From NCBI RefSeq assembly GCF_003018235.1, contig NZ_CP027437.1: a stretch of 64,000 bases of DNA. The stretch is one strand, 5' to 3'. A model generated the notes under the pieces. That model did not search any database, had not been told where the DNA came from, and saw only the letters and a list, made by a program, of their open reading frames with translations. The DNA comes from Escherichia coli. GTDB taxonomy: Bacteria > Pseudomonadota > Gammaproteobacteria > Enterobacterales > Enterobacteriaceae. Shown here one piece after another: positions 3,534 through 41,890 of the stretch; the stretch's first letter is position 1; each line of letters starts with the position of its first letter. The position numbers and the translations under genes are program-made.

Positions 3534-4613
3534 ATGCAGGCGATCCTGACGGTATTCCCGCAGCGTAATGCCGGGATAACACTGATGAAAACAGGTAATC
3601 TGACAGCGCGGTTCAGGGACGGGCAGAGAATAATGATAAGGGATGTTCCGTCTGTGATGGCTGGGATGCCATCAGGAGAAATTCCGTCATCAGGACAGAG
3701 GCTGGCGGAAGAGGAAGGACTGACGGCTTTCTTTGCTGACGGAAGGGTAATAAAGCGTGCTGGTGGCAGTGATGCCATGGCGCGTTGGGTGAGCAGGATT
3801 GCAGGCTGCCAGTGTGAGAATGGTGATCACGTGGAGAACATGACAACAGCGCGGACAATGCAGGGAGAGGCGCTTCGGTTATGCCATGCCTGTGATAATC
3901 ATCATTATATGAAAGGATATCGGGCGCTGGCAGATGTGGCAGCCAGAAATCGTGCAGAATGGCTGATGGATTATATCAGGATGAGTCTGGGGCTGGGGGA
4001 AGATCATCAGGTGACCATTCCTGAGTTGTTTTGCTGGGCAGTGCTGAATGATGTGGCAGATGCTGTTCCGGTTATGATCGTAAGGCGTATCAGACAATTG
4101 CCGGAAGAGGAAAAGCTGAGCGGCACGATGAAAGAAGCAGATATTAATCCCTGGCAGACATCAGCAGGCACAGTGGTGAAGAAACTGGCAGATAATGCGA
4201 AGAGCGTTAATGTGTGCAATGTGCGGGTCAGACATGCAGTACGCCAGGAAGAACACAAAGAAATGGAAAAACCGGTGCTGAAACTTGTTGCAGACAGTGA
4301 TCCGGCTGCGGGCTATATGAGGAAGCCCAGAATGCAGCGGCTGTCTCTGCCGGGTTATACCTCGTGGGTGAAGCGTCAGCGATGCTGTGGATGCGGGAAA
4401 CCTGCAGATGATCCGCATCACATCACCGGGCACGGTTTTGGTGGTGCAGGGATAAAAGCCAGTGATTTGTTTGTGATCCCGCTGTGTCGGCAATGTCATC
4501 AGGAATTACACAATGACAGCAAGGCATGGGAGGAGAAAAACGGCAGTCAGTTGCTGTGGGTGATAAGGACGCTGGACAGGGCAGCGGGCATTGGCGCTTT
4601 AGTTGGGGGGTAA
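3534..4613 (+). CDS. Cys/His-rich prophage protein, resembles YdfU/DUF968 family (from memory)
   Basis: ATG with AGAGGTGGGG RBS; C-terminal CCGCGKPADDPHHITGHGFGG...IPLCRQCHQELHN zinc-binding-like cluster and internal CQCENGDH...CHACDNHHY cluster; size about 359 aa. Confidence 0.4.
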   Translation: MQAILTVFPQRNAGITLMKTGNLTARFRDGQRIMIRDVPSVMAGMPSGEIPSSGQRLAEEEGLTAFFADGRVIKRAGGSDAMARWVSRIAGCQCENGDHVENMTTARTMQGEALRLCHACDNHHYMKGYRALADVAARNRAEWLMDYIRMSLGLGEDHQVTIPELFCWAVLNDVADAVPVMIVRRIRQLPEEEKLSGTMKEADINPWQTSAGTVVKKLADNAKSVNVCNVRVRHAVRQEEHKEMEKPVLKLVADSDPAAGYMRKPRMQRLSLPGYTSWVKRQRCCGCGKPADDPHHITGHGFGGAGIKASDLFVIPLCRQCHQELHNDSKAWEEKNGSQLLWVIRTLDRAAGIGALVGG

Positions 4614-4614
4614 C

Positions 4615-5319
4615 ATGACACCGCAACAGATGGTATGGGCGAGAGAGCAGGTTATTTTTGCACTGAATCCACCGGATAAACGTCAGAAGGGGCAACTGGA
4701 GGCATTTGGTGATTTTGCCAGGTCAGACACCAGGCGTTACGGGAGGCAGAGAAACAGGACACTGAACATTGATGGCCGGTGGTATTGTCAGGATGGTGAT
4801 CCGGTACATGCTGCGGCAACAGCCTGTTATGCAATACAACCGGATATGATCACCAGGGAAGCGTTCAGAACGGCACAACTGAGGAGGAGGATTTATTGTC
4901 TGGAGGATTATCATCGGGCCTGGGTGTTATTCAGTTACAGCTTGCAGAAAAAACGAATACACCATCTTCTGGTCAGTGAGTACATCTGGATGAGGATGTT
5001 CGAGCGGTTGCAGGGGAAACGGGTTACGGACAGGATGACAGGAAATCTGATTGAAATAGCGAGGATGGCTGCATGGAATGCTGCAGTGACAGCCGGTGGG
5101 ATTGTTGCAGGTAAGGTTCTGATTGCTCCTTCATGTGCGGCGCAGATTGCAGGTGTAAAACCAAACACATGGAGTCAGCATTACAAGGCTCACTGGTGTT
5201 TTATGCATGAAGTATGCGATGAACTGGATCATGAGGCGCTGGTGACCATTACAGGAATAAAAAATCACCAAAAAAACGGCGAAAAATATAAATTTGCTAA
5301 AGTGAATATTTTAAGGTAG
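4615..5319 (+). CDS. hypothetical protein, candidate Q-type late antiterminator (by position and size only)
   Basis: Start 1 nt after upstream stop; 234 aa; followed immediately by promoter-like hexamers and a strong intrinsic terminator, as for Q/PR-prime/tR-prime. Confidence 0.3.
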   Translation: MTPQQMVWAREQVIFALNPPDKRQKGQLEAFGDFARSDTRRYGRQRNRTLNIDGRWYCQDGDPVHAAATACYAIQPDMITREAFRTAQLRRRIYCLEDYHRAWVLFSYSLQKKRIHHLLVSEYIWMRMFERLQGKRVTDRMTGNLIEIARMAAWNAAVTAGGIVAGKVLIAPSCAAQIAGVKPNTWSQHYKAHWCFMHEVCDELDHEALVTITGIKNHQKNGEKYKFAKVNILR

Positions 5320-5862: not shown

Positions 5863-6930
5863 ATGACGCATGTTGTAAAAATATCAGAAAGTGAACTGGT
5901 CAATGCTGACTGCCTGGAATTTATACACACGTTGCCAGATGACAGTATTGACCTGATCGTTACCGATCCACCGTACTTTAAAGTGAAACCCAATGGCTGG
6001 GATAACCAGTGGAAGGGTGATGAAGATTACCTGAAGTGGCTGGATCAGTGTCTTGCGCAGTTCTGGCGGGTGCTGAAACCTGCCGGAAGTCTTTACCTGT
6101 TCTGTGGCCATCGCCTGGCATCTGACATCGAAATCATGATGCGTGAACGCTTTAATGTGCTGAACCATATTATCTGGGCGAAGCCGTCCGGACGCTGGAA
6201 CGGATGCAACAAGGAAAGCCTGAGGGCGTATTTCCCGGCCACAGAGCGCATTCTGTTCGCGGAACACTATCTGGAGCCGTATCGCCCGAAAGATGATGGT
6301 TATGAGGCGAAGGGCAGGGCACTGAAACAGCATGTGATGGCACCGCTGATTTCTTACTTTCGTGATGCGCGTGCCGCCCTTGGGATAACGGCAAAACAGA
6401 TTGCTGATGTCACAGGAAAGAAAAACATGGTGTCGCACTGGTTCAGTGCCAGTCAGTGGCAGCTGCCGAACGAAAGCGATTATCTGAAATTACAGGCGCT
6501 GTTTGCCCGGGTGGCAGAAGAGAAGCATCAGCGCGGAGAACTGGAAAAGCCACACCACCAGCTGGTGGTAACGTATACCTCACTGAACCGGCAGTATGCG
6601 GAGTTGCTGAGTGAATACAAAAATCTGCGCCGGTATTTTGGCGTGACGGCGCGGGTCCCGTACACCGATGTGTGGACGCACAAGCCGGTCCAGTTTTACC
6701 CGGGTAAACACCCCTGTGAAAAACCGGCGGAGATGCTGCGGCAGATAATTTGTGCGAGCAGCCGTCCTGGTGACATGGTGGCGGATTTCTTTATGGGGTC
6801 GGGCTCAACCATAAAAGCCGCTATGGCGCTGGGGCGTCGTGCAATTGGTGTTGAACTGGAAGAGGAACGTTTTGCGCAGACCGTGAAAGAGATTAGTCAT
6901 ATCCTGACAGGCTCAATTGATGACGGATAA
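5863..6930 (+). CDS. orphan DNA amino-methyltransferase (N6-adenine/N4-cytosine, beta-class motif order)
   Basis: TDPPYF (motif IV) near N-terminus and FFMGSGST (motif I) near C-terminus; no adjacent restriction endonuclease. Confidence 0.8.
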   Translation: MTHVVKISESELVNADCLEFIHTLPDDSIDLIVTDPPYFKVKPNGWDNQWKGDEDYLKWLDQCLAQFWRVLKPAGSLYLFCGHRLASDIEIMMRERFNVLNHIIWAKPSGRWNGCNKESLRAYFPATERILFAEHYLEPYRPKDDGYEAKGRALKQHVMAPLISYFRDARAALGITAKQIADVTGKKNMVSHWFSASQWQLPNESDYLKLQALFARVAEEKHQRGELEKPHHQLVVTYTSLNRQYAELLSEYKNLRRYFGVTARVPYTDVWTHKPVQFYPGKHPCEKPAEMLRQIICASSRPGDMVADFFMGSGSTIKAAMALGRRAIGVELEEERFAQTVKEISHILTGSIDDG

Positions 6931-7380
6931 GGATGGATAAAGACATGGTCAGTTCAGGATGCGAAGCAAGTAAACAGATAAGGCTATAAAAAAAACTGAC
7001 AGTAGAAAAATAGCTTTTTCCCAGGTATTCATGAACACAATCTCTTAAAAGCGCCCGCTGATACCAGCGGGCAATACATACTGGCATTGATGTTAAGTTT
7101 ACAGGTTTCATTTATCGTATCGTGCGACACGACGTTGTTATGTTAATAAGTGTGATTTTTGATGTGAAATGTTTGTTGCGTGTTTTTTGATGGGTTTCTC
7201 ATTTTTCAGGCATCATCTCGTCACTGATGTGCAGCACAGCGATGAGGTGCTACTACTTCCACGGAGCGGATTTTGTCTTTTTTGTGGGTGGTAAAAATCT
7301 CCTTATAGCAGGATGTGATAATTATTTATCAGTATAATCTTATGAGATTGACGCGATTTCTCCGGATTTGTTAGAAGATC

Positions 7381-7420
7381 ATGCATGGTGAATCCACCTC
7401 AGCGGTGGGTCATAATGACC
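7381..7420 (+). repeat. about 40-bp conserved motif, copy 1 (GCATGGTGAATCC-hairpin-CATAATGAC)
   Basis: 33 of 40 identical to copy 2 at 7940-7979. Confidence 0.5.
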
Positions 7421-7456
7421 GCCTGTTCGCCGGTTCAATCCCTGCGGGGGCCACCA
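7404..7456 (+). pseudogene. degenerate tRNA: ileX/ileZ-like 3-prime half (CAT anticodon, T-arm, GGGGGCC-A-CCA) lacking a pairing 5-prime acceptor strand
   Basis: 3-prime half aligns closely to E. coli ileX recalled from memory; no 5-prime sequence can pair with the acceptor 3-prime strand. Confidence 0.4.
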
Positions 7457-7457
7457 T

Positions 7458-7534
7458 GCGCCGTTAGCTCAGCTGGACAGAGCAATTGCCTTCTAAGCAA
7501 TCGGTCACTGGTTCGAATCCAGTATGGCGCACCA
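7458..7534 (+). tRNA. tRNA-Arg (anticodon TCT, reads AGA)
   Basis: Cloverleaf folded by hand: 7-bp acceptor stem, perfect 5-bp anticodon stem ATTGC/GCAAT, loop CTTCTAA, T-loop TTCGAAT, encoded CCA. Confidence 0.85.
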
Positions 7535-7535
7535 T

Positions 7536-7610
7536 GCGGTCATCGTATAATGGCTATTACCTCGGCCTTCCAGGCTGATGATGCGGGTTCGATTCCAGCT
7601 GGCCGCTCCA
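7536..7610 (+). tRNA. tRNA-Gly (anticodon TCC), glyT-like with one T-stem mismatch
   Basis: 75 nt, near-identical to E. coli glyT recalled from memory; anticodon loop CTTCCAG; acceptor stem with one G-U; T-stem GCGGG/CCAGC has a G-A mismatch. Confidence 0.7.
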
Positions 7611-7768: not shown

Positions 7769-7939
7769 TATTTTTAGTATTTAGCCAGAGTGGCCCAAAC
7801 AGAAAATAAAGTTACTGTGAAACAGGGGGGCCTAATAAAAATAATCACCACTAAATTCGGGGCTTTAAAAATGCTAAGAACATCACATTTCATTATGCCG
7901 GGTACTGGAGAATAACATGATGTTTTGTTAAAAATGATT

Positions 7940-7979
7940 TTGCATGGTGAATCCCCCTGTGCGGCGGGGCATAATGACA
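7940..7979 (+). repeat. about 40-bp conserved motif, copy 2
   Basis: See copy 1; a partial inverted copy (GGTCATTGCAG...CACCATGCAG) lies at about 8021-8064. Confidence 0.5.
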
Positions 7980-8321
7980 GATGTTTGGTTGCGTATTGTA
8001 TAGGCAAGTTGCGGATTCTGTCTGGTCATTGCAGAATTCACCGGGAGGCACCCGGCACCATGCAGATAATTGTTTTGTGGATGATAATACCAGCCCCTCT
8101 CCGGAGGGGCTTTCTTATGGGCGAAAAAAAGCCCGGGGAGCCGGGCAATAGCATGAGATATACGTTTTTATAGACGTACAGATTTTAATCAGAATTTATG
8201 GGGCTGCGCAACTGCGTGGCCTTTTTTGTTTTGTGGGCTAAGGTTTTCCCCTTTGATTCGCCATGTGGCTGAACCTGTAGCCCGCCACTGTTCAGACGCA
8301 ATCCCGGCAAGGGGAGGAATA

Positions 8322-10349
8322 ATGGCATTTAAACACTACGATCTGGTCTCTGCCAGCAGCGGTGATGAACTGCAAAAGAAACTGACAGAAAAAATAAATG
8401 AAGGGTGGCAGCCATACGGTTCGCCGCTTGTTTCGTATGACGATAACGGGATGAAAATTATTCAGGCCATTGCAGCAGAGGGTGATGTCAGGATCCCGGT
8501 TGAAACGCCTGATGATGGTGGTGATTCACCGGTCACAATGACCTCCGGTGCACCTGATTATTATTATGTTGTTGTGCTTGCCGGACAGTCCAACGGCATG
8601 GCCTACGGTGAGGGGCTTCCGTTACCGGACTCTTATGACCGCCCGGACCCGCGCATTAAACAGCTGGCACGCCGCAGTACAGTGACGCCGGGTGGGGACG
8701 CCTGTGCATACAATGATGTGATTCCGGCTGACCATTGTCTGCATGATGTACAGGATATGAGCGGTGTTAATCATCCGAAAGCGGACCTGAATAAGGGGCA
8801 GTATGGCTGTGTCAGTCAGGGGCTGCATATTGCCAAAAAACTGCTGTCGTATATCCCGCAGAATGCAGGGATACTTCTGGTGCCCTGCTGCCGTGGTGGT
8901 TCTGCATTCACCACCGGGGCTGACGGCACATTCAGTGAGGTCACCGGCGCATCCGCTGACGCTGCACGCTGGGGTGCCGGTAAACCCCTGTATCAGGACA
9001 TGGTCAGCCGGACAAAAGCGGCGCTGGCCAAGAACCCGAAAAACAGGCTGCTGGCGGTGGTATGGATGCAGGGCGAGGCAGACCTTGCGTCAGGCAGTCA
9101 GCAGCATAACGGGTTATTCACGGCCATGGTTCAGCAGTTCCGGACTGACCTGTCCTCACTTGCTGCGCAGTGCGTGAGTGGCAATGCTGCCACGGTGCCG
9201 TGGATTTGTGGTGATACCACGTATTACTGGAAGGCCACTTATGGCACACAGTATGAAGCCATTTATGGAGCCTATAAGAATCTGTCCGCACAGAATATTT
9301 TCTTTGTACCGTTCCTGACAGATGAAAACGGCGCAAACACGCCAACGAACCAGCCAGCGGAAGACCCGGATATTGTGGCTGTGGGGTATTACGGTGCGGC
9401 ATCACGAACACAGGCGAACTGGACGACAGCGCAACGTGACAGCCATTTCAGCACCTGGGCGCGTCGCGGCATCATTTCTGACCGCCTTGCGTCAGCTATT
9501 CTGGTGCACGCGGGACGTACGTCAGGTTTCATTACCGGTGAAGTTTCTTCTCCGGACACTGCATCCGGTGACGGTGGTTCGTCCACTGATGCGGGTACGG
9601 ATGCGGGGACCGGCACTTCCGGAACAGGAAGTGATGACGCTACCGGAACGACACCAGCCACCGCTGCCATTATTCTGAGTGCAGACGGAGGGGATGTTTC
9701 GGCACAGGGCTGGACGGTGGAAGGCACCACGGTGACCACCACGGCAAACACGGTGACTTCATCGGGTGAGGCGCTGGCGCAGAATGTGCTGAGTGTTCCG
9801 AAACAGAGCGGGGCAGCATGGAAGCTTGTTCATACCACCACAGATGAGCCAGCGGAACTGCTGAACAATGGCGGTGAGTTCCTGTGTCGTTTCCGTATCA
9901 CGGATACTGCCATTGCTGAGGGGCGTTATGCCTTTGGTCTTTACTGGCTTCCGGACGCACAGAAGATACCAGCCGGTGCGACATTCAATAAAACAGGAAG
10001 CGGGATGTCCCCGTCCATGCTCAACTTCTATGTCCAGACGGATGGCAGCAACATAAACCTGTTATCACACTGCAGTACGAAGAGTGCAGGGAATCTGAAG
10101 ATTGGCTCATTCGGTGCATTTAACAATGAATGGCATACCTTCCGTCTTCGCTACCATGGTGGCAATACGGCAAGAGCAACGGTGACGCTGGACAGTCAGG
10201 TGGTGGGAGATATAACGCTGTTATGTGCGCCGTCAGCGGCCAGTGCCGGTGACACTCTGTCGATGATAAGTATCACATCGGGTGATACATACAGTATTGA
10301 AGTGGAAAGCCTGAGTGTGACGGTGAACGGGGCTGCGGCAGCGGCGTGA
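8322..10349 (+). CDS. prophage sialate O-acetylesterase-like protein (NanS-p-like) with long C-terminal Thr/Gly-rich domain
   Basis: GGGGAGGAATA RBS then ATG; SASA-type catalytic motif VLAGQSNGMAYGEG; N-terminal region resembling DUF1737; position equivalent to the esterase gene downstream of stx in Stx phages. Confidence 0.6.
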   Translation: MAFKHYDLVSASSGDELQKKLTEKINEGWQPYGSPLVSYDDNGMKIIQAIAAEGDVRIPVETPDDGGDSPVTMTSGAPDYYYVVVLAGQSNGMAYGEGLPLPDSYDRPDPRIKQLARRSTVTPGGDACAYNDVIPADHCLHDVQDMSGVNHPKADLNKGQYGCVSQGLHIAKKLLSYIPQNAGILLVPCCRGGSAFTTGADGTFSEVTGASADAARWGAGKPLYQDMVSRTKAALAKNPKNRLLAVVWMQGEADLASGSQQHNGLFTAMVQQFRTDLSSLAAQCVSGNAATVPWICGDTTYYWKATYGTQYEAIYGAYKNLSAQNIFFVPFLTDENGANTPTNQPAEDPDIVAVGYYGAASRTQANWTTAQRDSHFSTWARRGIISDRLASAILVHAGRTSGFITGEVSSPDTASGDGGSSTDAGTDAGTGTSGTGSDDATGTTPATAAIILSADGGDVSAQGWTVEGTTVTTTANTVTSSGEALAQNVLSVPKQSGAAWKLVHTTTDEPAELLNNGGEFLCRFRITDTAIAEGRYAFGLYWLPDAQKIPAGATFNKTGSGMSPSMLNFYVQTDGSNINLLSHCSTKSAGNLKIGSFGAFNNEWHTFRLRYHGGNTARATVTLDSQVVGDITLLCAPSAASAGDTLSMISITSGDTYSIEVESLSVTVNGAAAAA

Positions 10350-10481
10350 GGATAAAAAAAGCTGCCGTGGAAAGTGTCCTGAACCGGCAGCAAGGTCAAA
10401 TGATGGATATACCAATAAGGTTTAATAGGCGCAGATATTTCTAACCGGAAGGCACTTAACGGTCAATAATGGAGGTTGGTA

Positions 10482-10667
10482 ATGACATTTATACAACTGA
10501 TACTGCTATATTTCTGCACGGTGGTCTGTGCGTTATATCTGGTGAGCGGTGGCTATAAAGCCATCAGAAATTATGTCCGCCGAAAAATTGATGATGCAGC
10601 GGCTGAGAAGCTCAGCAGAACAACACAGGCTGCCTCATCCCCGAACGAACCAACCCTTCCACAGTAA
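10482..10667 (+). CDS. small single-pass membrane protein (61 aa)
   Basis: GGAGG RBS 6 nt upstream of ATG; N-terminal hydrophobic helix. Confidence 0.45.
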   Translation: MTFIQLILLYFCTVVCALYLVSGGYKAIRNYVRRKIDDAAAEKLSRTTQAASSPNEPTLPQ

Positions 10668-10689
10668 CGTCTCTCAGCGGGAAAATACC

Positions 10690-11025
10690 ATGACAGAACT
10701 GAACAAACTGGTCACTGCAGATGCAGTGAAGGCCGCACTGCGCTCTGAAGAAGTGCGGGGAAAACTGAAGGAAACCATCCGCAAAACGTTTGAGGCACAG
10801 ATTGATGCGGATGTGGAAGCGGTGCTGGATGAGCTTATCGGGCCTGCGGAAGCTCAGCCGGGAGCACCGGCCGGAGAGGATGCGCAGGCGGATGACACGT
10901 CAGCGGAAAACGGTGCGGCACAACCGGAACCTGAATCAGGAACCGAAGCTCAACCGGACGCTGCTTCCGGAACAGGAACGCAACCGGAGGGTACCCCGGA
11001 GCCGGAACCGGCGACGTTGCTGTAA
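10690..11025 (+). CDS. acidic low-complexity protein (112 aa)
   Basis: ATG in frame of ORF 10549..11025; C-terminal E/P/A/G/T-rich tail. Confidence 0.4.
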
Positions 11026-11102
11026 CACCTCATACTCAGGCCACCAGCATACAGCGGTGGCCTTTTGTTATCGTGCGCTTCCGGAGAACGGGAGACGGGG
11101 AT

Positions 11103-11318
11103 ATGTACCAGATGGAAAAAATCACAACAGGGGTGTCATACACCACGTCAGCGGCGGGAACGGGATACTGGTTACTGCAGCTGCTGGACAGGGTCTCCCC
11201 GTCCCAGTGGGCGGCGATAGGCGTGCTGGGGAGTCTGCTGTTTGGTCTGCTGACGTACCTGACGAACCTGTATTTTAAAATCAGAGAGGACCGTCGTAAG
11301 GCGGCGCGGGGAGAATAA
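11103..11318 (+). CDS. holin, phage-21 S-type (pinholin-like) with dual-start motif MYQM
   Basis: Near-identity to S21 C-terminal region ([14 protein letters not shown]...[22 protein letters not shown], from memory); two TM segments. Confidence 0.8.
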
Positions 11319-11321
11319 ATA

Positions 11322-11953
11322 ATGAACCATGAAGAAATGAATCAGCGCTTCAGTCGCCTGGAAAATGAAATTGCCGGACTGAATAAAAAACTGTCGGCGC
11401 TGGTGACTTCTGAAGATGAAAAAAAAAACGCCGCGATGAACAGGAGGCGGCGTTTTATGATTATTGCATCAAAGTTGCCCGCAGGACCTTTGCGAATTTT
11501 TTGCAGGAAAAGCTATCACCGACCACATCGTCAGAAAAGTACTCCATTACGGTTGAAAGTGCCGGAGAGGAAGGCAATAAACGTTATTTTATTGCGTCTG
11601 CACCGGATAAAGACGAGGAACCCCGTCGGCCTTTCAGGGTTTCCTATGAAGAGGGGGAGTTCGTCGTTTATGAGAACGGAAAACCTGTCCGGGCATCGCA
11701 TCATCACTGCCTGAAAATTATTGATCTCGCTATTGGATGCCTGAAAGACGAAAACACCAGGGTTATGAAACGCATTGGCCGTTGCATGGGGTATCTGCAG
11801 GTGGCGGCAGAGATTGAAGCACTTGACAGTGGTGCTGACAGGGATACAGCGGTGCGGGAGTTCCTTCTTCGTGATTTCAATACCACGCCCTTTAAAAAAG
11901 TGCCTTATGACTGGATCCAGCCGGGCCTGACTTATCTCAAAGGGCGTATATGA
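11322..11953 (+). CDS. hypothetical gene between holin and endolysin, split into two frames at an A10 tract (11419-11428); fused product about 210 aa if -1 shift
   Basis: Frame 0 ORF 11322.. is protein-like for about 33 codons then junk-like; frame -1 is protein-like from the A-run to 11953 but has no ATG start; A10 tract followed by 7-bp-stem hairpin ACGCCGC...GCGGCGT. Confidence 0.35.
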
Positions 11954-11995
11954 GTTGGCATGTTATCTGTGGCCGATAAATCCTGATAAATATCC

Positions 11996-12529
11996 ATGAA
12001 CGCAAAAATCAGATACGGCCTGTCGGCTGCCGTTCTGGCGCTGATTGCCGCAGGGGCTTCTGCGCCAGAAATCCTTGACCAGTTTCTGAATGAAAAAGAA
12101 GGTAATCACACCACGGCATACCGTGATGGTGCGGGTATCTGGACCATCTGCCGTGGTGCCATTCTGGTGGACGGTAAGCCTGTTGTTCCCGGCATGAAGT
12201 TGTCGAGGGAAAAATGCGACCAGGTTAACGCCATCGAACGTGACAGGGCGCTGGCATGGGTGGAGAAAAACATCAAAGTGCCGCTGACCGAACCGCAGAA
12301 AGCGGGGATTGCGTCATTCTGCCCGTACAACATCGGTCCTTCGAAATGCTTCACCTCAACGTTTTACCGGAGACTGAACGCCGGAGACCGTAAGGGGGCA
12401 TGTGCTGAAATCCGTCGGTGGATATATGACGGTGGCAGGGACTGCCGTATCCGCTCAAACAACTGCTACGGTCAGGTATCCCGGCGTGACCAGGAGAGTG
12501 CGCTGGCGTGCTGGGGTATCGACAGATAA
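11996..12529 (+). CDS. SAR endolysin (lysozyme, phage-21 R-type)
   Basis: N-terminal signal-anchor-release helix LSAAVLALIAAGASA followed by lysozyme catalytic region EGNHTTAYRDGAGIWTICRG. Confidence 0.8.
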   Translation: MNAKIRYGLSAAVLALIAAGASAPEILDQFLNEKEGNHTTAYRDGAGIWTICRGAILVDGKPVVPGMKLSREKCDQVNAIERDRALAWVEKNIKVPLTEPQKAGIASFCPYNIGPSKCFTSTFYRRLNAGDRKGACAEIRRWIYDGGRDCRIRSNNCYGQVSRRDQESALACWGIDR

Positions 12530-12619
12530 GCAGAATATTTTGCTGAAAAATGAGATTTTCCCACGCGTCCGGAAAACACAAAATCCTTCATAAAGGTATT
12601 TCAGTAGTGAATAAAAGTA

Positions 12620-12660
12620 AAAACCCCGATTGCGCTAACAGTCGGGGTTTTGTGTTTCTG
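12620..12660. terminator. bidirectional intrinsic terminator-like hairpin (AAAACCCCGA...TCGGGGTTTT)
   Basis: GC stem flanked by A-run and T-run. Confidence 0.5.
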
Positions 12661-12749
12661 ACCTTGAATAAGGCAAGGGAGAAATTATCAGGTAGGGAGG
12701 TGCTTTCCCTGTGAGGAAGTATAAAAGATTCTTTCTGAGGTTGTCCATT

Positions 12750-12863
12750 ATGAAAGGCATTGAAGTGGAGACGCCAGCCAGTCTGGATTTAACAAGAGCA
12801 GCAGCCTTTGCCATTCGTATTGTGGCAATTGCCATACTGGTCTGGGCAATCCGCTGGTGGTGA
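12750..12863 (+). CDS. small hydrophobic ORF (37 aa) overlapping the Rz start
   Basis: ATG ORF ending TGGTGATATG where Rz starts; one TM-like helix; weak RBS. Confidence 0.2.
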
Positions 12864-12864
12864 T

Positions 12865-13332
12865 ATGAACCGTGTTCTGTATGTGTTGATTATTGTCCTG
12901 CTGGTGGCCTGCGGTGCGCTGTGGCTGGCAACAGACCATTACCGCGATAATGCCATCACTTACAAAGCGCAGCGCGATAAAAAAGTCAGAGAACTGAAGC
13001 TGGCTGACGCCACCATTACTGACATGCAGCAGCGCCAGCGTGATGTTGCTGCACTCGATGCAAAATACACAAAGGAGTTAGCCGATGCGAGAGCTGAAAA
13101 TGAAACTCTGCGCGCTGATGTTGCTGCTGGTCGTAAGCGCCTGCGTGTCAACGCCACCTGTGTGTCCGCCACAGACAAAGCCACCGGCACCGCCCGCGTG
13201 GGTAATGCTGCCCGCCCCAGACTGGCAGACGCCGCTCAACGGTATTATTTCACCCTCAGAGAGCGGCTGATGACGATGCAGAAGCAACTGGAAGGGGCAC
13301 AGGAATATATCAGGACGCAATGCGTGAAATAG
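12865..13332 (+). CDS. i-spanin Rz
   Basis: N-terminal TM helix then coiled-coil periplasmic domain; embedded Rz1 frame. Confidence 0.7.
13100..13270 (+). CDS. o-spanin Rz1 (lipoprotein embedded in Rz in +1 frame)
   Basis: Lipobox LLVVSAC and Pro-rich mature region, fully inside Rz. Confidence 0.65.
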
Positions 13333-16776: not shown

Positions 16777-18278
16777 TGGCGATTAGTGATGATGTGATTG
16801 GTTTTTTCTCGCCCGGCTGGAAAGCGGCGCGATTACGCTCAAGGGCGTTAATTATGGCCTATGAGGCCGTGAAACCCACCCGCACGCACAAAGCCCGGCG
16901 GGAAAACCGTTCTGCCGATCAGCTCAGTAAATACGGTGCGGTTTCCCTGCGCGAGCAGGCCCGCTTTCTGGATATCAATCATGACCTGGTGATAGGCGTG
17001 TTTGACAAGCTGGAGGAGCGGGTGATTGGCGCCAGGGGGATCACCGTTGAACCTCATCCGGTGCTGAAAAACGGGAAGATTGCGGCGGAGCTGGCAGCGG
17101 ATATCCGGCGGCTGTGGGCGGAATGGTCTGTCAGTCCGGATGTGACCGGACAGTACACCCGTCCCATGCTTGAACGTCTGCTGCTGCGCACCTGGCTGCG
17201 GGACGGGGAAGTGTTTGCGCAGATGGTCAGTGGTGCGGCAGGCGGTCTTAAGCGGTCTGCCGGTGTGCCTTTCTGGCTTGAGGCGATGGAGCCGGATTTT
17301 GTGCCCATGCGCAGTGATGAATCTGCCGGACTGAATCAGGGCGTTTTTCTGGATGAGTGGGGCAGGCCGAAAAAATATCTGGTTTACAAAAATTATCCGG
17401 TTTCCGGGATACAGAGTGATACCAAAGAGATCGCCGCAGACAATATGGTGCACCTGAAGTTCACCCGTCGCCTGCACCAGACGCGTGGCACATCCATGCT
17501 GTCAGGGGTGCTGATGCGGATCAGTGCGCTTAAGGAATATGAAGACGCCGAGCTGACTTCGGCACGTGTTGCGGCGGCGCTGGGGCTGTATATCCGTAAA
17601 GGGGACGGACAGGACTATGAAGATCCGGGGGTGAAAGACAACGAACGTGAAGTGCATATCACCCCGGGCATTATCTATGACGATTTGCGCAAGGGTGAGG
17701 ATATCGGCATGGTCAAATCAGACCGTCCGAATCCCAATCTTGAGAATTTTCGTAACGGCCAGCTGCGTGCGGTGGCGGCAGGCAGTCGTCTGAGCTTTTC
17801 CAGTGCGGCGCGCAACTACAACGGCACCTACAGTGCCCAGCGGCAGGAGCTGGTGGAGTCCACCGATGGTTATTTTATCCTTCAGGACTGCTTTATTGGC
17901 GCGGTAACCCGTCCGGTATACCGGGCATGGCTGAATATGGCGGTTGCGGCAGGTCTGCTGAAAATCCCGACTGGCCTGGATATGAAGACGTTATATAACG
18001 CGACGTATTCCGGTCCGGTGATGCCGTGGATTGACCCGGTTAAGGAAGCTGAAGCCTGGCGGATACAGATCAGGGGTGGTGCCGCGACGGAATCCGACTG
18101 GATCCGCGCAAGCGGGCGCAACCCGGATGAGGTCAAACGTCGCCGTAAGGCTGAAACTGATGAAAACCGCAGGCTGGGGCTGGTCTTTGATACTGACCCC
18201 GTCAACGACAAAGGAGGCAACAGTGCCGGAACTGAACAACAGCGTCAGCAGGCCACCGACAGCCAGCATGAAGAATAA
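16776..18278 (+). CDS. portal protein (lambda gpB-like)
   Basis: 500-aa ORF directly after W with ATGA overlap; lambda-like head gene order. Confidence 0.8.
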   Translation: MAISDDVIGFFSPGWKAARLRSRALIMAYEAVKPTRTHKARRENRSADQLSKYGAVSLREQARFLDINHDLVIGVFDKLEERVIGARGITVEPHPVLKNGKIAAELAADIRRLWAEWSVSPDVTGQYTRPMLERLLLRTWLRDGEVFAQMVSGAAGGLKRSAGVPFWLEAMEPDFVPMRSDESAGLNQGVFLDEWGRPKKYLVYKNYPVSGIQSDTKEIAADNMVHLKFTRRLHQTRGTSMLSGVLMRISALKEYEDAELTSARVAAALGLYIRKGDGQDYEDPGVKDNEREVHITPGIIYDDLRKGEDIGMVKSDRPNPNLENFRNGQLRAVAAGSRLSFSSAARNYNGTYSAQRQELVESTDGYFILQDCFIGAVTRPVYRAWLNMAVAAGLLKIPTGLDMKTLYNATYSGPVMPWIDPVKEAEAWRIQIRGGAATESDWIRASGRNPDEVKRRRKAETDENRRLGLVFDTDPVNDKGGNSAGTEQQRQQATDSQHEE

Positions 18279-20238
18279 ATCCTGGTTCAGGATGCAGGCG
18301 GGTGGTCAGGGTGAGGCGGATATTTATATTTATGACGAGATTGGTTTCTGGGGGGTTACGGCGAAGCAGTTTATCAGTGATCTGAATGCGCTTGGCGACA
18401 TCACCCACATTAATCTCCATATCAATTCACCGGGTGGCGAGGTCTTTGAAGGCATCGCCATTTTTAATACCCTCAGAAATCACGGTGCAGGCATTACCGT
18501 GTATGTGGACGGGGTTGCCGCGTCGATGGCATCCCTGATTGCGATGGCCGGTGACACGGTCATTATGCCGGAAAATGCCTTCATGATGATCCATAAGCCC
18601 TGGGGGATCAGCGGTGGTGACGCGGAGAAAATGCGCACTTATGCCGATCGCCTCGACAAACTTGAGTCGGTTATGGTGCCGGTATATGCGCAGAAAACCG
18701 GGAAAACCACCGATGAAATTGCTGCCATGCTGGCGGATGAGACCTGGATGTCCGGTGCGGAATGTCTGGCACACGGATTTGCAGACCAGGTGACGCCAGC
18801 CGTTAAGGCAATGGCATGTATTCAGTCAAAACGTACAGAGGAATTTAAAAAGATGCCGGAATCCATCAGAAATATGATCACACAACCGTCTGACCGTACC
18901 CCGCGTGAGGCGACCACCACACAGGCAGTCACAGAACCCGCCCCGGCACCGGCAGCGCCAGATGAGGAGACCATCCGGGCCAGTGTACTGGCGGAGCAGA
19001 AGGCCCGTATGTCAGGCATTAACGATCTGTTTGCCATGTTTGGTGGTCGTTATCAGGCACTTCATGCGCAGTGTGTGGCCGATCCCGGCTGCTCGCTGGA
19101 GATGGCCCGAGAGCGTCTGCTGAATGAAATGGGTAAGGAGTCCTCGCCGACTAACAAAACCACACCGGCACATATTTATGCCGGAAACGGTAATTTTGTG
19201 GGTGACGGGATCCGTCAGGCGCTGATGGCCCGCGCCGGATTTGAGACTACGGAGAAGGATAATGCCTATAACGGGATGACCCTGCGTGAATGCGCCCGCA
19301 TGTCACTGACGGAGCGGGGGATCGGGGTGGCCAGTTACAACCCCATGCAGATGGTGGGGCTGGCGCTGACGCACAGCACCTCGGATTTTGGCAATATCCT
19401 GCTGGATGTGTCGAATAAGGGACTGATTCAGGGCTGGGAGGAATCAGAGGAAACCTTCCAGAAATGGACCCGCAAAGGTCGCCTGTCTGACTTCAAAACG
19501 GCATACCGTGTGGGGATGGGGGGCTTTGGTTCACTGCGTCAGGTGCGCGAAGGGGCAGAGTACAAGTACATCACCACCTCAGACCGCAGGGAAACCATCG
19601 CGCTGGCGACCTACGGGGAAATTTTCTCCATCACCCGTCAGGCCATTATCAATGATGACCTGAATATGCTGGTGGATGTCCCGATGAAGATGGGGCGTGC
19701 CGCGAAGGCAACGATTGGTGACCTGGTGTATGACGTGCTGACAAAAAATCCGAAACTGTCAGACGGCAAGGCGCTGTTCCATGCCGATCACCAGAATATT
19801 GCCACCGGCGGGATCTCCGTTTCCGGTCTGGATGCGGCACGTCAGATGATGCGTCTGCAGAAGGAGGGGAATCGTGCACTGAATATCCGTCCGGCCTTCA
19901 TGCTGGTACCGGTGGCGCTGGAGACGGTGGCAAACCAGACCATCAAATCGGCCAGTGTGAAAGGGGCGGATGCGAATGCCGGTGTCATTAACCCGATTCA
20001 GAACTTTGCCGAAGTGATTGCGGAAGCGCGTCTTGATGCGGCAGATCCGAAAACCTGGTATCTGGCGGCGGCACAGGGGACCGATACGATAGAAGTGGCC
20101 TGGCTGGATGGTGTGGACACGCCGTATATTGATCAGCAGGAAGGCTTCACCACTGACGGTATCGCCACAAAAATCCGTATTGATGCCGGTGTGGCACCGC
20201 TTGACTGGCGCGGACTGGTACGATCATCTGCTGCCTGA
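18268..20238 (+). CDS. prohead protease (ClpP/S14 family) fused to major capsid protein
   Basis: N-terminal ClpP-like region INSPGGEVFEGIAIFNTLRNH...ASMASLIAMAGD; about 450 aa C-terminal extension in capsid position. Confidence 0.7.
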   Translation: MKNKSWFRMQAGGQGEADIYIYDEIGFWGVTAKQFISDLNALGDITHINLHINSPGGEVFEGIAIFNTLRNHGAGITVYVDGVAASMASLIAMAGDTVIMPENAFMMIHKPWGISGGDAEKMRTYADRLDKLESVMVPVYAQKTGKTTDEIAAMLADETWMSGAECLAHGFADQVTPAVKAMACIQSKRTEEFKKMPESIRNMITQPSDRTPREATTTQAVTEPAPAPAAPDEETIRASVLAEQKARMSGINDLFAMFGGRYQALHAQCVADPGCSLEMARERLLNEMGKESSPTNKTTPAHIYAGNGNFVGDGIRQALMARAGFETTEKDNAYNGMTLRECARMSLTERGIGVASYNPMQMVGLALTHSTSDFGNILLDVSNKGLIQGWEESEETFQKWTRKGRLSDFKTAYRVGMGGFGSLRQVREGAEYKYITTSDRRETIALATYGEIFSITRQAIINDDLNMLVDVPMKMGRAAKATIGDLVYDVLTKNPKLSDGKALFHADHQNIATGGISVSGLDAARQMMRLQKEGNRALNIRPAFMLVPVALETVANQTIKSASVKGADANAGVINPIQNFAEVIAEARLDAADPKTWYLAAAQGTDTIEVAWLDGVDTPYIDQQEGFTTDGIATKIRIDAGVAPLDWRGLVRSSAA

Positions 20239-33869: not shown

Positions 33870-34475
33870 GTGGATAAGGGAAAAGAGATTCTTGCAGTAC
33901 GAAATGCCGGTTACAACGAATACGGCGGTATAAACTGTGAGGTGCAGTTTGAAGGCGCGGTGAATGAAAAAGGTGAAGCGTTATGGCTGCCATATACGGC
34001 AACGGAAACGGATAATACTGAACACGGAAAAGCATTATGGTCTGGTCTGACAGCAGGAAAGTACGGAGATGTGACCGCCTTTGCTGCCACGGAAGCTGTT
34101 CTTGAGGCGGCAAAATCGGTGAAAAGGGAGGAGATTAATCTCTGGCGGGACGTGCAGGAAAATATGGAATACGTGATGGAATTCAACGGAAGAAAATGGG
34201 ATTACGGCAAGAAGACATTGTCCAGGATAAGCACGACGCGCCTGATGGCGGAAAAAAACAGTCTTCCGGAAGGATTTGCGTGGACGGATGGTGAAAATAA
34301 TGTGGTGCCGGTGACGGCGGCGGAAGTTATCGCGCTGTCGGATGCGATAGAGAAGGCGATGTTTGCGAAGGGGGTGGAGATTAACACCAGACAGTTGCAG
34401 ATGAAAGCAGAGGTTGAGGCGCTGACAGAGCTGAAGTCCATCAGAAGTTATGTTGTTGGCTGGCCTGCCAGTTGA
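33870..34475 (+). CDS. hypothetical protein in tail-fibre-assembly position, not lambda Tfa-like
   Basis: GAGGAGG RBS then GTG; 201 aa; no similarity to lambda Tfa recalled. Confidence 0.4.
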   Translation: MDKGKEILAVRNAGYNEYGGINCEVQFEGAVNEKGEALWLPYTATETDNTEHGKALWSGLTAGKYGDVTAFAATEAVLEAAKSVKREEINLWRDVQENMEYVMEFNGRKWDYGKKTLSRISTTRLMAEKNSLPEGFAWTDGENNVVPVTAAEVIALSDAIEKAMFAKGVEINTRQLQMKAEVEALTELKSIRSYVVGWPAS

Positions 34476-35135
34476 ATAAAAAAAGCGGGGCCACCCCCGG
34501 GCCCCGACATAACGAAGTATCAGATGTTTATAATTATTAGCTTACTAACTGTGCCATATCAGAATACTGCAGGAAGTGATGTTGTTATCATTTTTGCAAG
34601 CAGGGCGTTTCTGGAGGGAATCGATTGGTGATGGAGTGTGCAATGATGAAGGGAATAAGCCTCTGCAAAACAAAAAAAGACTTTAACAAAATCAAGCTCG
34701 CTTAGTGGCGCATCTGCCCGTATCCGCACCAGTCGTCCGGAAAATGATTCAAACACCGGGCGGCAAAAGTATTACCAGTGTAGCAACCTGGAATGCGGCG
34801 TATGCTTCTCAACTCTGGCAGCTTTCCATAAATTCACATCGAAACACGCTTCCGGCGTTCACTCTTCAGAAGGTATCCCGTGGCATGAACTGCCAGCTTC
34901 ACACTGGTGAAACAATCAGATGACTTTTCCTTTACCTCAAATTAACAGGCAGAATTGCCGGAGTAACAAAAAAACGATAGATTACGCGCGGGTGCCTTTC
35001 GGCTGATGGTCGGAGGGAATACCCGAAGGCCAGATGTGGAAAGGCCCCGGAAAACACTTTTGTTTAACCGAGGCCCTAACCGTCTACCCTAAGCAAGTGA
35101 TAGGTTAGCGCCTCCCCGAAAAAGGAGCAAGCGCT

Positions 35136-35276
35136 ATGTCGCAAAAATCGCTGATCGCCATCACGCTCTGCGTGACAGCAACCCTCATCATCTGGATATT
35201 GCACGGTTCGCTGTGTGAGATACGGATGAGTTTCTGGGGAGCGGAGTTTGCGGCGTTCTTACAGTGTAAGCAGTAA
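35136..35276 (+). CDS. Hok/Gef-family type I toxin (46 aa)
   Basis: AAGGAG RBS; TM helix then SLCEIR...EFAAFLQCK matching Hok signature SLCEIRYRDGHREVAAF (from memory); structured flanking RNA. Confidence 0.6.
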   Translation: MSQKSLIAITLCVTATLIIWILHGSLCEIRMSFWGAEFAAFLQCKQ

Positions 35277-35417
35277 GGAGACCGCGACGGGGGAGTAATC
35301 CCCCGTCAATCGGTTGTCAGGGTAAGGTCGAAGTGGCACCCAAATTTAAATAGAGGCCCACCAGTAAGAGTAAGAGCGGTGGGCTTAGCACTTGTTTAAA
35401 TTTGAAAGGAATTCTTT

Positions 35418-35714
35418 ATGAGTGAAATGGTATTTTGTCGCGGCTGCGGCAAGGAAATACATAAAAATGCCATATCTTGCCCCAATTGTGGAGCACCTCA
35501 AAGAACAGCAAGTTCAAAAAGCAGGATTACAGCTGCACTACTGGCTTTCTTTTTTGGTGGTCTCGGTGCACACAAATTTTATTTAGGTAAAGTGGGACAA
35601 GGATTTCTTTATCTTATTTTTTGCTGGACATTCATTCCGGCAATCGTGGCTTTTATTGAGTTTATTATCTATCTATGCACCTCAGATGAAGATTTCGCCC
35701 GCAAATATGGCTGA
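35418..35714 (+). CDS. zinc-ribbon plus TM2-domain membrane protein (98 aa)
   Basis: CRGCG...CPNCG zinc ribbon; TM2-like motif FFFGGLGAHKFYLG and two TM helices. Confidence 0.6.
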   Translation: MSEMVFCRGCGKEIHKNAISCPNCGAPQRTASSKSRITAALLAFFFGGLGAHKFYLGKVGQGFLYLIFCWTFIPAIVAFIEFIIYLCTSDEDFARKYG

Positions 35715-35749
35715 CATCTAGCGGACGAATCAGAATGACAAACCCGCAA

Positions 35750-35780
35750 CCCGCAGCGTAAAAACTGCGGGTTTTCTTTT
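35750..35780 (+). terminator. intrinsic terminator after TM2-domain gene
   Basis: CCCGCAG...CTGCGGG hairpin followed by TTTTCTTTT. Confidence 0.6.
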
Positions 35781-35960
35781 GCTACCCATCACGAATGAGG
35801 GCACCATAAAGAAAGCCCACAGCATAGTGGTTGCGGGCTTTTTACATTCAAAGATGGACGTTTTATGGACATTGAAAGTTTAAATCCTTTAACTTTCAAC
35901 TGGTTGATGCTAATTTTAACGCACCCGAAGGCGCGTTGGCGATACACTCAATATAAAGGA

Positions 35961-36356
<396 letters not shown>

Positions 36357-36572
36357 TCAAAATGTGTGATGGAAATCTCATAATTTTGTCACTTTTTGTC
36401 AACGAATCTTTTTTGTGAGAAATCGCAGGAAGAGGTGTTTTTTTACTTGAGGAATATCTCAAAGCGAGCCATATTTGATGAGATCGATAGTGACTAAATC
36501 GCTTCAGTTTCACAACTAACAGAATAAAAAAACGGCAGCTCAAGGGCTGCCGTTTTGTGTTTCAGGTTTTTG

Positions 36573-37310
36573 TTATGTATTGCTGCTGTTTGCAGCGATG
36601 ATTTTCGCTACTTTTTCAGCTTGCGCATTCATCTGCATCTGACGGTATGCATTTTCCATCAGCGGCAGCGCATCACGCGTCGCCTGGGTATCCGGGTAGT
36701 CGCGCAACATGCCTTCTACGCGGTTAACGACGGCAACCCATGCACCACGTTCTGTATAGTACTCGGCAACGGAGTATTCATATTTCGCCAGACGATCTTT
36801 CAGGAATACCAGACGTTTGGTGGCATCGGTGGTGTACTGACTGTTCGGATAGCCGCGCACCAGTTTGGAAAAGTCACTAAACGCAGCTCGTGCATGTTGA
36901 GGATCGCGATCGCTACGGTCAACGCCAAAGAACCCTTGCAGCGCACTGTCATCGAGCGCCATATTGGTCAGGCCACGCATGTACATGACATAATCGATAT
37001 TCGGATGGGTCGGGTTAAGGCGAATAAAACGATCGATGGCAGCCTGTGCTAACGGCAAATCGGCGTTTTTATAGTAGGCGTAGATGAGATCCAGCTGCAC
37101 CTGCTGCGAATATGGACCAAACGGATAGCGATTATCTAACGCTTCCAGTTGCGTTATTGCCTGTCTCCAGTTACCGTCCTGCAGCTTTTGTTGTGCAGTC
37201 GCGTAAATTTCATTTGGCGGATTATCAGGTACTTCTTCCTTTGACCCCGAGCAACCCGCCAAAAACAGGCTTAGTGTGGCGGCTGCCACCAGATATTTCA
37301 TGCGCGTCAT
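36573..37310 (-). CDS. bamD: outer membrane protein assembly factor BamD
   Basis: 245 aa, lipoprotein signal LAGCSG, TPR-like; K-12 synteny. Confidence 0.95.
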
Positions 37311-37444
37311 GACGTTTTGACTTTCCTCAAAATGTAATACGGGAGATTCTCTGTTCCTGCTCCCGGTTAAGACCAGCTACAATAGCACACTATATTAAAC
37401 GGCAAAGCCGTAAAACCCCAACGATAAACGAAGAAGCAGTATAT

Positions 37445-39153: not shown

Positions 39154-39214
39154 CCTAAAGAATCAAGACGATCCGGTACGCGTGATTTTCTTTTCACATT
39201 AATCTGGTCAATAA

Positions 39215-39243
39215 CCTTGAATAATTGAGGGATGACCTCATTT
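39215..39243 (+). promoter_or_regulatory. sigma32 heat-shock promoter of clpB (CCTTGAA, 14-nt spacer, CCTCATTT)
   Basis: Match to sigma32 consensus CTTGAAA / CCCCATNT. Confidence 0.6.
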
Positions 39244-39282
39244 AATCTCCAGTAGCAACTTTGATCCGTTATGGGAGGAGTT

Positions 39283-41856: not shown

Positions 41857-41862
41857 TGATAA

Positions 41863-41890
41863 AACGAGCCCTTCGGGGCTCGTTTTTGTC
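41863..41890 (+). terminator. intrinsic terminator after clpB
   Basis: ACGAGCCC-TTCG-GGGCTCGT hairpin plus TTTTT. Confidence 0.7.

Follow-up and report, generated by a model that had tools for sequence, protein, structure and literature searches.

An intact nanS-p gene, predicted to encode a sialate 9-O-acetylesterase, in an stx-negative lambdoid prophage of Escherichia coli

Genes and features at the nanS-p locus

The 64,000-nucleotide stretch of E. coli DNA analyzed here (the window) contained a lambdoid, long-tailed (siphovirus), stx-negative prophage with the gene order Q, methylase, tRNAs, STnc100 sRNA, nanS-p, lysis cassette (terminase after Rz), and head genes. All features described below are on the + strand. 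The late-gene regulator, antiterminator Q (4603–5319), was identified by Pfam Phage_antiter_Q (1.4e-27) and PHROG_304, and tRNA-Arg(TCT) and tRNA-Gly(TCC) were located at 7458–7610 by ARAGORN and Rfam. An STnc100-family prophage sRNA (7912–8122; Rfam RF02076, 145.6 bits compared with a gathering threshold of 47) was present directly 5' of nanS-p. A terminator scan, in which a hit represents a consensus match, gave two terminator-like hairpins upstream of the gene: one at the 3' end of the STnc100 match (8092–8111) and the second, with a T-run, approximately 100 nt upstream of the ATG (8200–8223). Downstream of nanS-p, Pfam searches identified a lysis cassette of DUF1378, DUF826, a P21-type holin, lysozyme, and Rz (10476–13332), followed by a gene for a ClpP-protease/major-capsid fusion (18031–20238; Pfam CLP_protease and Phage_capsid_4; PHROG_133), with the capsid domain at approximately residues 395–735 of the product. 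The lysis, head, and tail genes around nanS-p were intact. The same synteny is found for nanS-p in the Stx phages Min27 and YYZ-2008 and in the closest E. coli prophage (CP076709). The gene occupied the slot held by stx in Shiga-toxin phages; here this slot would carry sialic-acid scavenging without the toxin, which fits with nanS-p being widespread beyond STEC.

The nanS-p coding sequence (8322–10349; 675 amino acids plus stop) lay in an enclosing open reading frame of 8226–10349, began with the ATG at 8322, and ended with the stop codon at 10347–10349, exactly as the preliminary description had placed it. A Shine–Dalgarno-like AGGGGAGG read from the sequence (8310–8317) was positioned 4 nt 5' of the ATG, and annotated homologues begin at the same start, with the N-terminus MAFKHYDL. 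The product matched Pfam DUF1737 (3.6e-15), SASA (3.3e-14), and DUF6645 (7.8e-21), PHROG_143 spanned its whole length (1.9e-278), and more than 1500 homologues were found; therefore, this is no chance open reading frame. A weak Pfam match to DUF5666 (E = 0.007) was below the cut-off and was disregarded, and an NCBIfam search of the protein gave no match, hence no curated equivalog name. A second copy of DUF1737 was sought within the 64-kb window and none was found.

Megablast against a phage collection gave a best match with only 32% coverage at approximately 77% identity, and the closest of 5426 complete E. coli genomes, in which nanS-p occurred at approximately 2100 places, was 90% identical. 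These values first suggested a rare allele, which was ruled out because an exact-sequence look-up found the identical 675-amino-acid protein already deposited in NCBI, on 13 contigs (e.g., P0121, EIM3166406.1). The window gene is thus an intact copy of nanS-p, a known E. coli prophage gene.

Domain organization and catalytic residues

The AlphaFold2 (AF2) model of the full-length protein was of moderate quality (mean pLDDT 66.6, pTM 0.45) and was used for domain boundaries and for the fold of the C-terminal domain. Active-site geometry was not read from the model but rests on sequence alignment, because confidence was low in parts of the esterase domain. At the N-terminus, amino acids 1–56 (8322–8489) formed a DUF1737 domain; PF08410 covered residues 3–53 over the full profile length. 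Its predicted secondary structure was E5–11/H14–26/E36–40/E43–52 with pLDDT of 75–81, and this fold of a helix and three strands agreed with a preprint's description of the phi24B domain, the comparison being made by description. Linker 1 (amino acids 57–76; 8490–8549), which was variable in alignments, was predicted to be disordered, with pLDDT below 50 for residues 55–79. It was followed by a NanS-like SASA/SGNH esterase domain (amino acids 77–400; 8550–9521), a disordered linker 2 rich in Thr, Gly, Ser, Asp, and Ala (amino acids 401–449; 9522–9668; pLDDT approximately 25), and a DUF6645 lectin-like jelly-roll domain (amino acids 450–675; 9669–10346). Profile scanning, which the preliminary description had proposed for SASA and DUF1737, thus matched both families.

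The esterase domain was assigned from the Pfam SASA profile, from a phmmer match of residues 77–394 to E. coli NanS (PDB ID: 3PT5; 2.1e-122), and from a Foldseek match of the model to the same structure (1.3e-26); it showed approximately 60% identity with E. coli NanS. The GQSN motif, from which a sialate O-acetylesterase had originally been proposed, was located at residues 88–91 (Ser90 codon, 8589–8591), and an RDSH motif at residues 372–375 (His375 codon, 9444–9446). Ser90 and His375 aligned with S19 and H301 of NanS, which bears out the catalytic residues expected on alignment, and the CCRGG189 and QGE250 blocks were conserved and aligned to NanS motifs. Block IV was RDSH in the window protein, compared with RSSH or RASH in characterized enzymes; the block variants seen here are those described for NanS and NanS-p (PMC10462455). 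The catalytic residues and at least 150 family-invariant positions were intact.

The C-terminal domain had been regarded in the preliminary description as a domain of unknown function that may bind carbohydrate. The latter suggestion stands, whereas the fold is no longer unknown: the domain was modeled with high confidence (pLDDT 80–91), matched PF20350, and was homologous to the jelly roll of the phi24B NanS-p C-terminal domain (PDB ID: 6YP6) by phmmer (2.4e-34) and Foldseek (TM 0.90, rmsd 2.3 Å). Further Foldseek neighbors included L-type lectins, sialidases of Akkermansia, and the domain of Vibrio cholerae sialidase that binds sialic acid (2W68). The binding site proposed for phi24B contains four aromatic residues, of which Y536, Y541, and Y570 were conserved in the window protein and F611 was replaced by Ser. 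Carbohydrate binding by this domain has so far only been proposed (PMC8065619, PMC10462455), and its probable role is to keep the enzyme attached to glycans.

Comparison with related enzymes and the Thr/Gly-rich linker

The window protein resembled NanS-p of the Stx phages 933W, Min27, and phi24B (Z1466, L0105, vb_24B_21, gp84) in the domain order DUF1737-SASA-DUF6645, in the position of its gene between Q/tRNAs and DUF1378-DUF826-holin-lysozyme, and in the SGNH block motifs, the lectin-like C-terminal domain, and flexible linkers bearing SSP. It differed from them in lacking stx genes upstream and in belonging to a lambda-like siphovirus, the head of which is of the ClpP-capsid fusion type, rather than to a T=9 podovirus. 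Its C-terminal domain was approximately 31–37% identical to the crystallized phi24B domain and its Stx-phage counterparts. Over the whole protein, the window allele was only approximately 50% identical to the characterized Stx-phage enzymes, an observation that counts against an esterase acting on mucin, as do the low identity of the C-terminal domain, the Ser in place of F611, and the RDSH form of block IV. E. coli NanS (YjhS), with the same aligned Ser (GQSN) and His (RxSH) and the same expected substrate, Neu5,9Ac2, is encoded in the nanCMS operon and consists solely of the catalytic domain (326 amino acids), with neither DUF1737 nor the linker and lectin-like domain.

The low-complexity string TASGDGGSSTDAGTDAGTGTSGTGSDDATGTT quoted in the preliminary description was present verbatim at residues 413–444, within the 49-residue disordered, acidic Thr/Gly/Ser stretch of linker 2. 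This linker was approximately 30 residues longer than that of Stx-phage NanS-p and Thr/Gly/Asp-rich instead of Pro/Ser-rich. Its description as extended was correct in that 61 residues separated the conserved anchors, compared with a family median of 49, but the length was not exceptional: it was within the family range of 12–92, and the linker was as long or longer in 9 of 120 relatives. Tandem Repeats Finder detected no tandem repeat in the linker DNA, so that the extra length is not a simple repeat expansion. An SSP motif at residues 409–411 resembled the putative processing motif of phi24B.

Two other alleles accounted for different parts of the window protein. P0001 (672 amino acids) had an identical linker (100%) and a 99% identical C-terminal domain, with only 57% identity in the N-domain. 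P0003 (WP_216781411, CP076709; 664 amino acids), which has the same flanking genes, was 100% identical in the N-domain and linker 1, whereas its linker 2 was 11 residues shorter and its C-terminal domain 78% identical. As judged from these alignments, the window allele has a mosaic structure made up of P0001-like and P0003-like parts. Because the exact protein is deposited, its linker is shared by other alleles, and the linker length is within the family range, the long linker and the allele itself are already known and are not new. The nanS-p gene call itself therefore adds little, and more is gained from the reassortment pattern of the domains described below.

Proposed role and alternative explanations

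From its sequence, the product is very likely a prophage-borne sialate 9-O-acetylesterase of the NanS-p family that would be made with the late genes and act on mucin. In EDL933 and O104:H4, every NanS-p allele tested has esterase activity on Neu5,9Ac2, supports growth, and removes O-acetyl groups from mucin glycans (PMC8065619, PMC10462455). By analogy with publications on orthologues, nanS-p would be transcribed with the late genes upon prophage induction. Upregulation upon induction has been reported for other alleles (PMC10462455), and we infer late-promoter dependence here only from the gene position and the terminator-like hairpins. The protein has no signal peptide and would therefore exit the cell at lysis. 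As for the orthologues, it would then strip 9-O-acetyl groups from Neu5,9Ac2 of mucin glycans, and the deacetylated sialic acid would become accessible to sialidases and usable through the Nan pathway, nourishing the lysogens that survive. By further extension, DUF1737 may attach the protein to the capsid hexons of the phage itself, in the manner described for phi24B.

It is improbable that the natural substrate is instead a bacterial surface polysaccharide that carries O-acetyl groups (O-antigen, capsule, or colanic acid), with the enzyme aiding the phage in reaching its receptor or progeny in escaping debris. A review raised such substrates as a possibility (PMC8065619), virion association in phi24B would suit a role in adsorption, and the C-terminal domain types are highly variable among alleles (33–99% identity), as is often the case in receptor-binding modules. 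However, the catalytic domain is closely related to NanS, the substrate of which is Neu5,9Ac2, cleavage of Neu5,9Ac2 and mucin sialoglycans is common to all NanS-p enzymes tested, and the same review cites no experimental support for LPS substrates (PMC8065619). Still less credible is the idea that nanS-p is a decaying, non-functional prophage remnant. Many E. coli copies are indeed truncated or IS-interrupted, as seen in partial cluster members and in IS-disrupted alleles (PMC10462455), but the window gene was full length with three domains, retained its catalytic and invariant positions, encoded a protein found identically on 13 contigs, and was surrounded by intact lysis, head, and tail genes.

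A weightier alternative, which we consider a real possibility although somewhat short of probable, is that the protein acts chiefly as part of the virion, to the benefit of the phage, and not as metabolic cargo: DUF1737 would plug the hexon centers, the esterase and lectin domains would be shown on the head and tether particles to mucus, and the linkers would later be cleaved. Such a function does not conflict with the esterase chemistry and differs from the scavenging role in the beneficiary and the site of action. Purified phi24B virions contained the orthologue gp84, with a hexamer of its DUF1737 domain resolved on the capsid hexons and processing in both of its linkers (preprint 10.64898/2026.04.10.717836). 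On the strength of that report, the earlier designation of a cargo gene may be incomplete. The window protein shares with this capsid-decorating protein the predicted DUF1737 helix and three antiparallel strands, a Tyr-bearing loop, and cleavable-looking linkers, including the linker-2 SSP motif. Moreover, the DUF1737 variant predicted the downstream head-gene module among 63 non-identical related loci (AMI 0.65), and after deduplication to 25 unique combinations the AMI was 0.42, a value reached in none of 2000 permutations. The esterase and C-terminal domain types, though physically nearer to the head genes, did not predict the head module (deduplicated AMI approximately 0, not significant). 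The window variant and two related variants occurred with the window head type in 16 of 16 cases, and the phi24B-type variant with a podovirus head in 19 of 20.

Several results argue against capsid display. No sequence similarity was detected between the window capsid protein and capsid proteins of the phi24B or YYZ-2008 type, and BLAST with the Min27 major head protein gave no match to the ClpP-capsid fusion or elsewhere in the window. A head akin to those of phi24B and YYZ-2008, which would have made docking a direct extrapolation, was thereby ruled out. Near-identical capsid proteins of head type H1 (96–99%) were paired with three DUF1737 variants only approximately 55–60% identical to one another, and a search for finer co-variation within H1 found none. 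A short-loop DUF1737 variant was paired with two heads that, when head genes were clustered at 35% identity or above, had no cluster in common, and two exceptions to the pairing occurred among the loci. The 63 loci are not phylogenetically independent, and the pattern could arise without any function, through patchy gene conversion among prophages residing in the same cell.

With these points weighed, we tentatively suggest that in long-tailed lambdoid prophages, as well as in the phi24B podovirus, DUF1737 may serve as a capsid anchor matched to the head type, by which the esterase would be displayed on the phage's own capsids, with the linkers as tethers or cleavage sites releasing the enzyme into mucus. 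If DUF1737 is such an anchor, selection for compatibility between N-domain and capsid would account for the continued association of the N-domain with the head module, in contrast to the shuffling of the esterase and lectin domains among prophages. Confirmation would extend the phi24B capsid-display result to a far larger siphoviral prophage population and would change the interpretation of nanS-p as a 'metabolic moron'. The anchor residue of phi24B, Tyr42 (the 'tooth'), belongs to a loop inserted between helices of the capsid protein; it aligned to Asn42 in the window protein, and the loop was SYDDNG here and STAGYG in gp84. Tyr39 lies in the same loop region, three residues before Asn42, and each DUF1737 variant seen keeps one loop Tyr.

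Identity and frequency of the nanS-p product

An ORF scan of the window gave a plus-strand ORF at 8226–10349, in which the nanS-p ATG at 8322 lay 4 nt 3' of AGGGGAGG. The 675-aa product from this ATG began with MAFKHYDL, the start that is also annotated for the homologues of CP076709, Min27, and YYZ-2008. The coordinates in the preliminary description (8322–10349) were exact, as were its GQSN motif (aa 88–91) and the linker string that it quoted (aa 413–444). Pfam matched DUF1737 (aa 3–53, 3.6e-15), SASA (aa 83–280, 3.3e-14), and DUF6645 (aa 514–632, 7.8e-21), the first two being the profiles for which a scan had been proposed. PHROG_143 covered the protein end to end (1.9e-278), and no NCBIfam model matched it. 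In a search against PDB sequences, aa 77–394 matched E. coli NanS/YjhS (3PT5; 2.1e-122) and aa 450–669 matched chain 6YP6, "NanS-p" (2.4e-34).

In a five-way alignment of the window protein, the closest E. coli allele, the NanS-p proteins of Min27 and YYZ-2008, and K-12 NanS, the esterase core was densely invariant and the CCRGG and QGE blocks were kept. The catalytic residues lined up as well: GQS90N was aligned with Ser19 of NanS, and RDSH375 with RSSH301. In the 3PT5 paper, NanS reportedly works with a Ser-His pair in place of a classical triad. Non-canonical SGNH block variants are common to NanS and NanS-p, with RSSH, RASH, or RPTH as block IV (PMC10462455), and RDSH in the window protein is a further variant at this already variable position. 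The SASA and DUF1737 matches and the aligned catalytic Ser and His bear out the earlier reading of a sialate O-acetylesterase. Judged by sequence, the gene encodes a NanS-p esterase, and we infer its chemistry from approximately 60% identity with NanS and from assays on other alleles; overall identity with the characterized Stx-phage NanS-p enzymes was approximately 50%.

Scoring covered more than 1500 homologues, which came almost entirely from E. coli or Shigella; they have these three Pfam domains and are typically 640–675 aa long. The identical 675-aa protein occurred in NCBI on 13 contigs (e.g., EIM3166406.1; UniParc UPI0018FE6928). The finding is real, and describes a catalogued member of a known gene family.

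Predicted structure and the C-terminal domain

An AlphaFold2 model built from a 48-sequence family alignment had moderate overall confidence (mean pLDDT 66.6, pTM 0.45). The N-terminal DUF1737 domain (N-domain) was predicted as a strand-helix-strand-strand fold (pLDDT 75–81), both linkers (aa 55–79 and aa 400–447) were predicted to be disordered, with a pLDDT of approximately 25 in linker 2, and a C-terminal beta-sandwich at aa 448–672 was modelled confidently (pLDDT 80–91). Linker 2, described previously as long, measured 61 aa between fixed anchors; it exceeded the family median of 49 aa but lay within the family range of 12–92, and no DNA tandem repeat was found in it.

Foldseek against the PDB matched the model with 3PT5 (1.3e-26) and 6YP6 (3e-21, TM 0.90, rmsd 2.3 Å), followed by 2W68 (the V. 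cholerae sialidase domain that binds sialic acid), sialidases of Akkermansia, L-type lectins, and the Hc domains of clostridial neurotoxins. Because of the 6YP6 match and these structural neighbours, the C-terminal domain is assigned a known fold, and the label "unknown" is out of date, the domain having since been solved as lectin-like; carbohydrate binding, also suggested in the preliminary description, still has the standing of a proposal, as does a lectin role of this domain in NanS-p (PMC8065619). The carbohydrate site proposed for the phage phi24B protein consists of four aromatic residues, Y510, Y515, Y540, and F611 (PMC10462455). In the alignment, three of the four were kept in the window protein (Y536, Y541, and Y570), and the position of F611 was occupied by Ser641.

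Prophage setting and predicted late expression

The host is E. coli; complete genomes of this species match the chromosomal flanks at 99.5–100% identity, and at least 80% of the prophage junction segment was matched by 76 of its complete genomes. The lambdoid, long-tailed prophage contains replication and HNH genes, a Q antiterminator (4603–5319), an N6/N4 DNA methylase (5863–6930), and tRNA-Arg(TCT) and tRNA-Gly(TCC) (7458–7610); nanS-p is followed in order by DUF1378, DUF826, a P21-type holin, lysozyme, Rz, the small and large terminase, portal, a ClpP-protease/capsid fusion (18031–20238), tape measure, and a J-like tail fibre. An stx gene is absent, and the methylase-to-nanS-p interval held only short ORFs and RNA genes. 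Between holin and lysozyme, overlapping ORFs of 130 and 150 aa (11322–11953, +) had no Pfam match, and the gene at the syntenic position of CP076709 carries the annotation of a hypothetical protein with a frameshift. In the early region, just inside or upstream of the 584–1207 ORF, Rfam matched isrK (641–715, +; 65.4 bits) and C4 antisense RNA (751–838, +; 77 bits), both above the gathering score. In the segment at about 34300–47300, the right end of the prophage adjoins raiA-bamD-rluD, and further on come the sRNA RyfD and an rRNA operon (16S, tRNA-Glu, 23S, 5S); the 861-aa ORF after RyfD is, from its size and position, probably clpB.

Directly upstream of nanS-p, a full-length STnc100-family prophage sRNA was matched at 7912–8122 (+; Rfam 145.6 bits, gathering score 47), its 3' end being the hairpin at 8092–8111. 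STnc100/PasD sRNAs have been linked to esterase genes, and an sRNA-esterase-holin arrangement has been described (preprint 10.64898/2026.05.13.724894). A weaker partial copy at 7355–7586 (+; 25.8 bits, sub-threshold) overlapped the tRNA cluster, and both copies had the motif CATGGTGAATCC-CC...GCGG-GGG-CATAATGAC. Just 5' of tRNA-Arg, the segment 7380–7457 (+) ended in GGTTCAATCCCTGCGGGGGCCACCA, which looks like the T-arm, acceptor stem, and CCA of a tRNA. No tRNA was called there by ARAGORN or Rfam, and the segment may be the decayed remnant of an ileZ-like tRNA such as Stx phages carry ahead of stx. Between STnc100 and nanS-p, 8124–8179 (-) gave antisense sub-threshold matches to the EHEC anti-sRNAs AsxR (44.5 bits, threshold 63) and AgvB (28.4 bits, threshold 56), with a minus-strand terminator-like hairpin at 8146–8131.

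Two plus-strand terminator-like hairpins, at 8092–8111 and 8200–8223, precede nanS-p and would fit Q-dependent read-through into the gene. The genes that Stx phages induce together with their late operon include nanS-p (PMC8065619, PMC10462455). The window enzyme would be a late product of the lytic cycle and, because it has no signal peptide, would be released at lysis; it would strip 9-O-acetyl groups from mucin sialic acids, which could then be cleaved and catabolized, and the lectin-like C-terminal domain would likely concentrate the enzyme on glycans.

The DUF1737 domain, head type, and mosaic alleles

The "cargo" label of the preliminary description is out of date, since the phi24B orthologue gp84 is virion-associated: according to a 2026 preprint (10.64898/2026.04.10.717836), virions contain gp84 in abundance, hexamers of its DUF1737 domain plug the hexon at the centre of each face of the T=9 capsid, Tyr42 forms a "tooth", and both linkers undergo processing close to SSP motifs. 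In the window protein, SSP occurs in linker 2 (aa 409–411) and DSP in linker 1. To see whether a capsid role would be plausible beyond podoviruses, we typed the N-domain, esterase, C-terminal domain, and downstream head module at 233 IMG/VR loci around NanS-p relatives, and counted co-occurrence in the 63 loci that were non-identical and allowed the head module to be called. The window N-domain variant and two related long-loop variants occurred only with the window head type (H1; 16/16), the short-loop variant with two other head types (25/26), and phi24B-type variants with the podovirus head (19/20). Adjusted mutual information with head type across the 63 loci, which are not independent of one another, was 0.65 for the N-domain and 0.29 for both the esterase and the C-terminal domain; across the 25 unique combinations it was 0.42 for the N-domain, a value reached by 0 of 2000 permutations, −0.01 for the esterase, and 0.00 for the C-terminal domain. 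Simple linkage would predict the opposite ranking, because the esterase and C-terminal domain are encoded after the N-domain and closer to the head genes. The association hints at functional coupling.

The pattern could also have a neutral origin, in gene-conversion patches bounded by the conserved esterase and lysis sequences. H1 capsid proteins were 96–99% identical, yet occurred with three N-domain variants only 55–60% identical to each other, and the two head modules of the short-loop variant had no head-gene cluster in common at 35% identity or above. The window capsid protein had no sequence similarity to the phi24B-type and YYZ-type capsid proteins, and phi24B Tyr42 aligned with Asn in the window protein, which has a Tyr at position 39. 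Because of these mismatched pairings, the dissimilar capsid sequences, the Tyr42 difference, the neutral alternative, the non-independence of the loci, and two exceptions to the rule (L048 and L187), we regard capsid display by the window prophage as possible but somewhat doubtful. Both exceptions look like recombinant head regions. In L048, the DUF1737 is of the short-loop variant and the capsid is H1-type (97% identity with that of the window), but the terminase (70%) and portal (79%) are divergent, and L187 combined a phi24B-type DUF1737 with a YYZ-type head.

Compared by sequence, the NanS-p family is strongly mosaic. Against the window protein, the E. coli allele P0001 showed 100% identity in linker 2, 99% in the C-terminal domain, and 57% in the N-domain; the CP076709 allele (P0003) showed 100% in the N-domain, 63% in the linker, and 78% in the C-terminal domain; and P0014 showed 100% in the N-domain, 94% in the esterase, and 33% in the C-terminal domain. 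At approximately 15 IMG/VR loci (L012, L017, L020, L023–L036, L042), NanS-p relatives of 683–692 aa lacked DUF1737, which was replaced by an unrelated N-terminal region of approximately 110 aa (MSDS[QK]WKMLSAMPGEFSVKVAGG...) with no Pfam match, and retained SASA and DUF6645.
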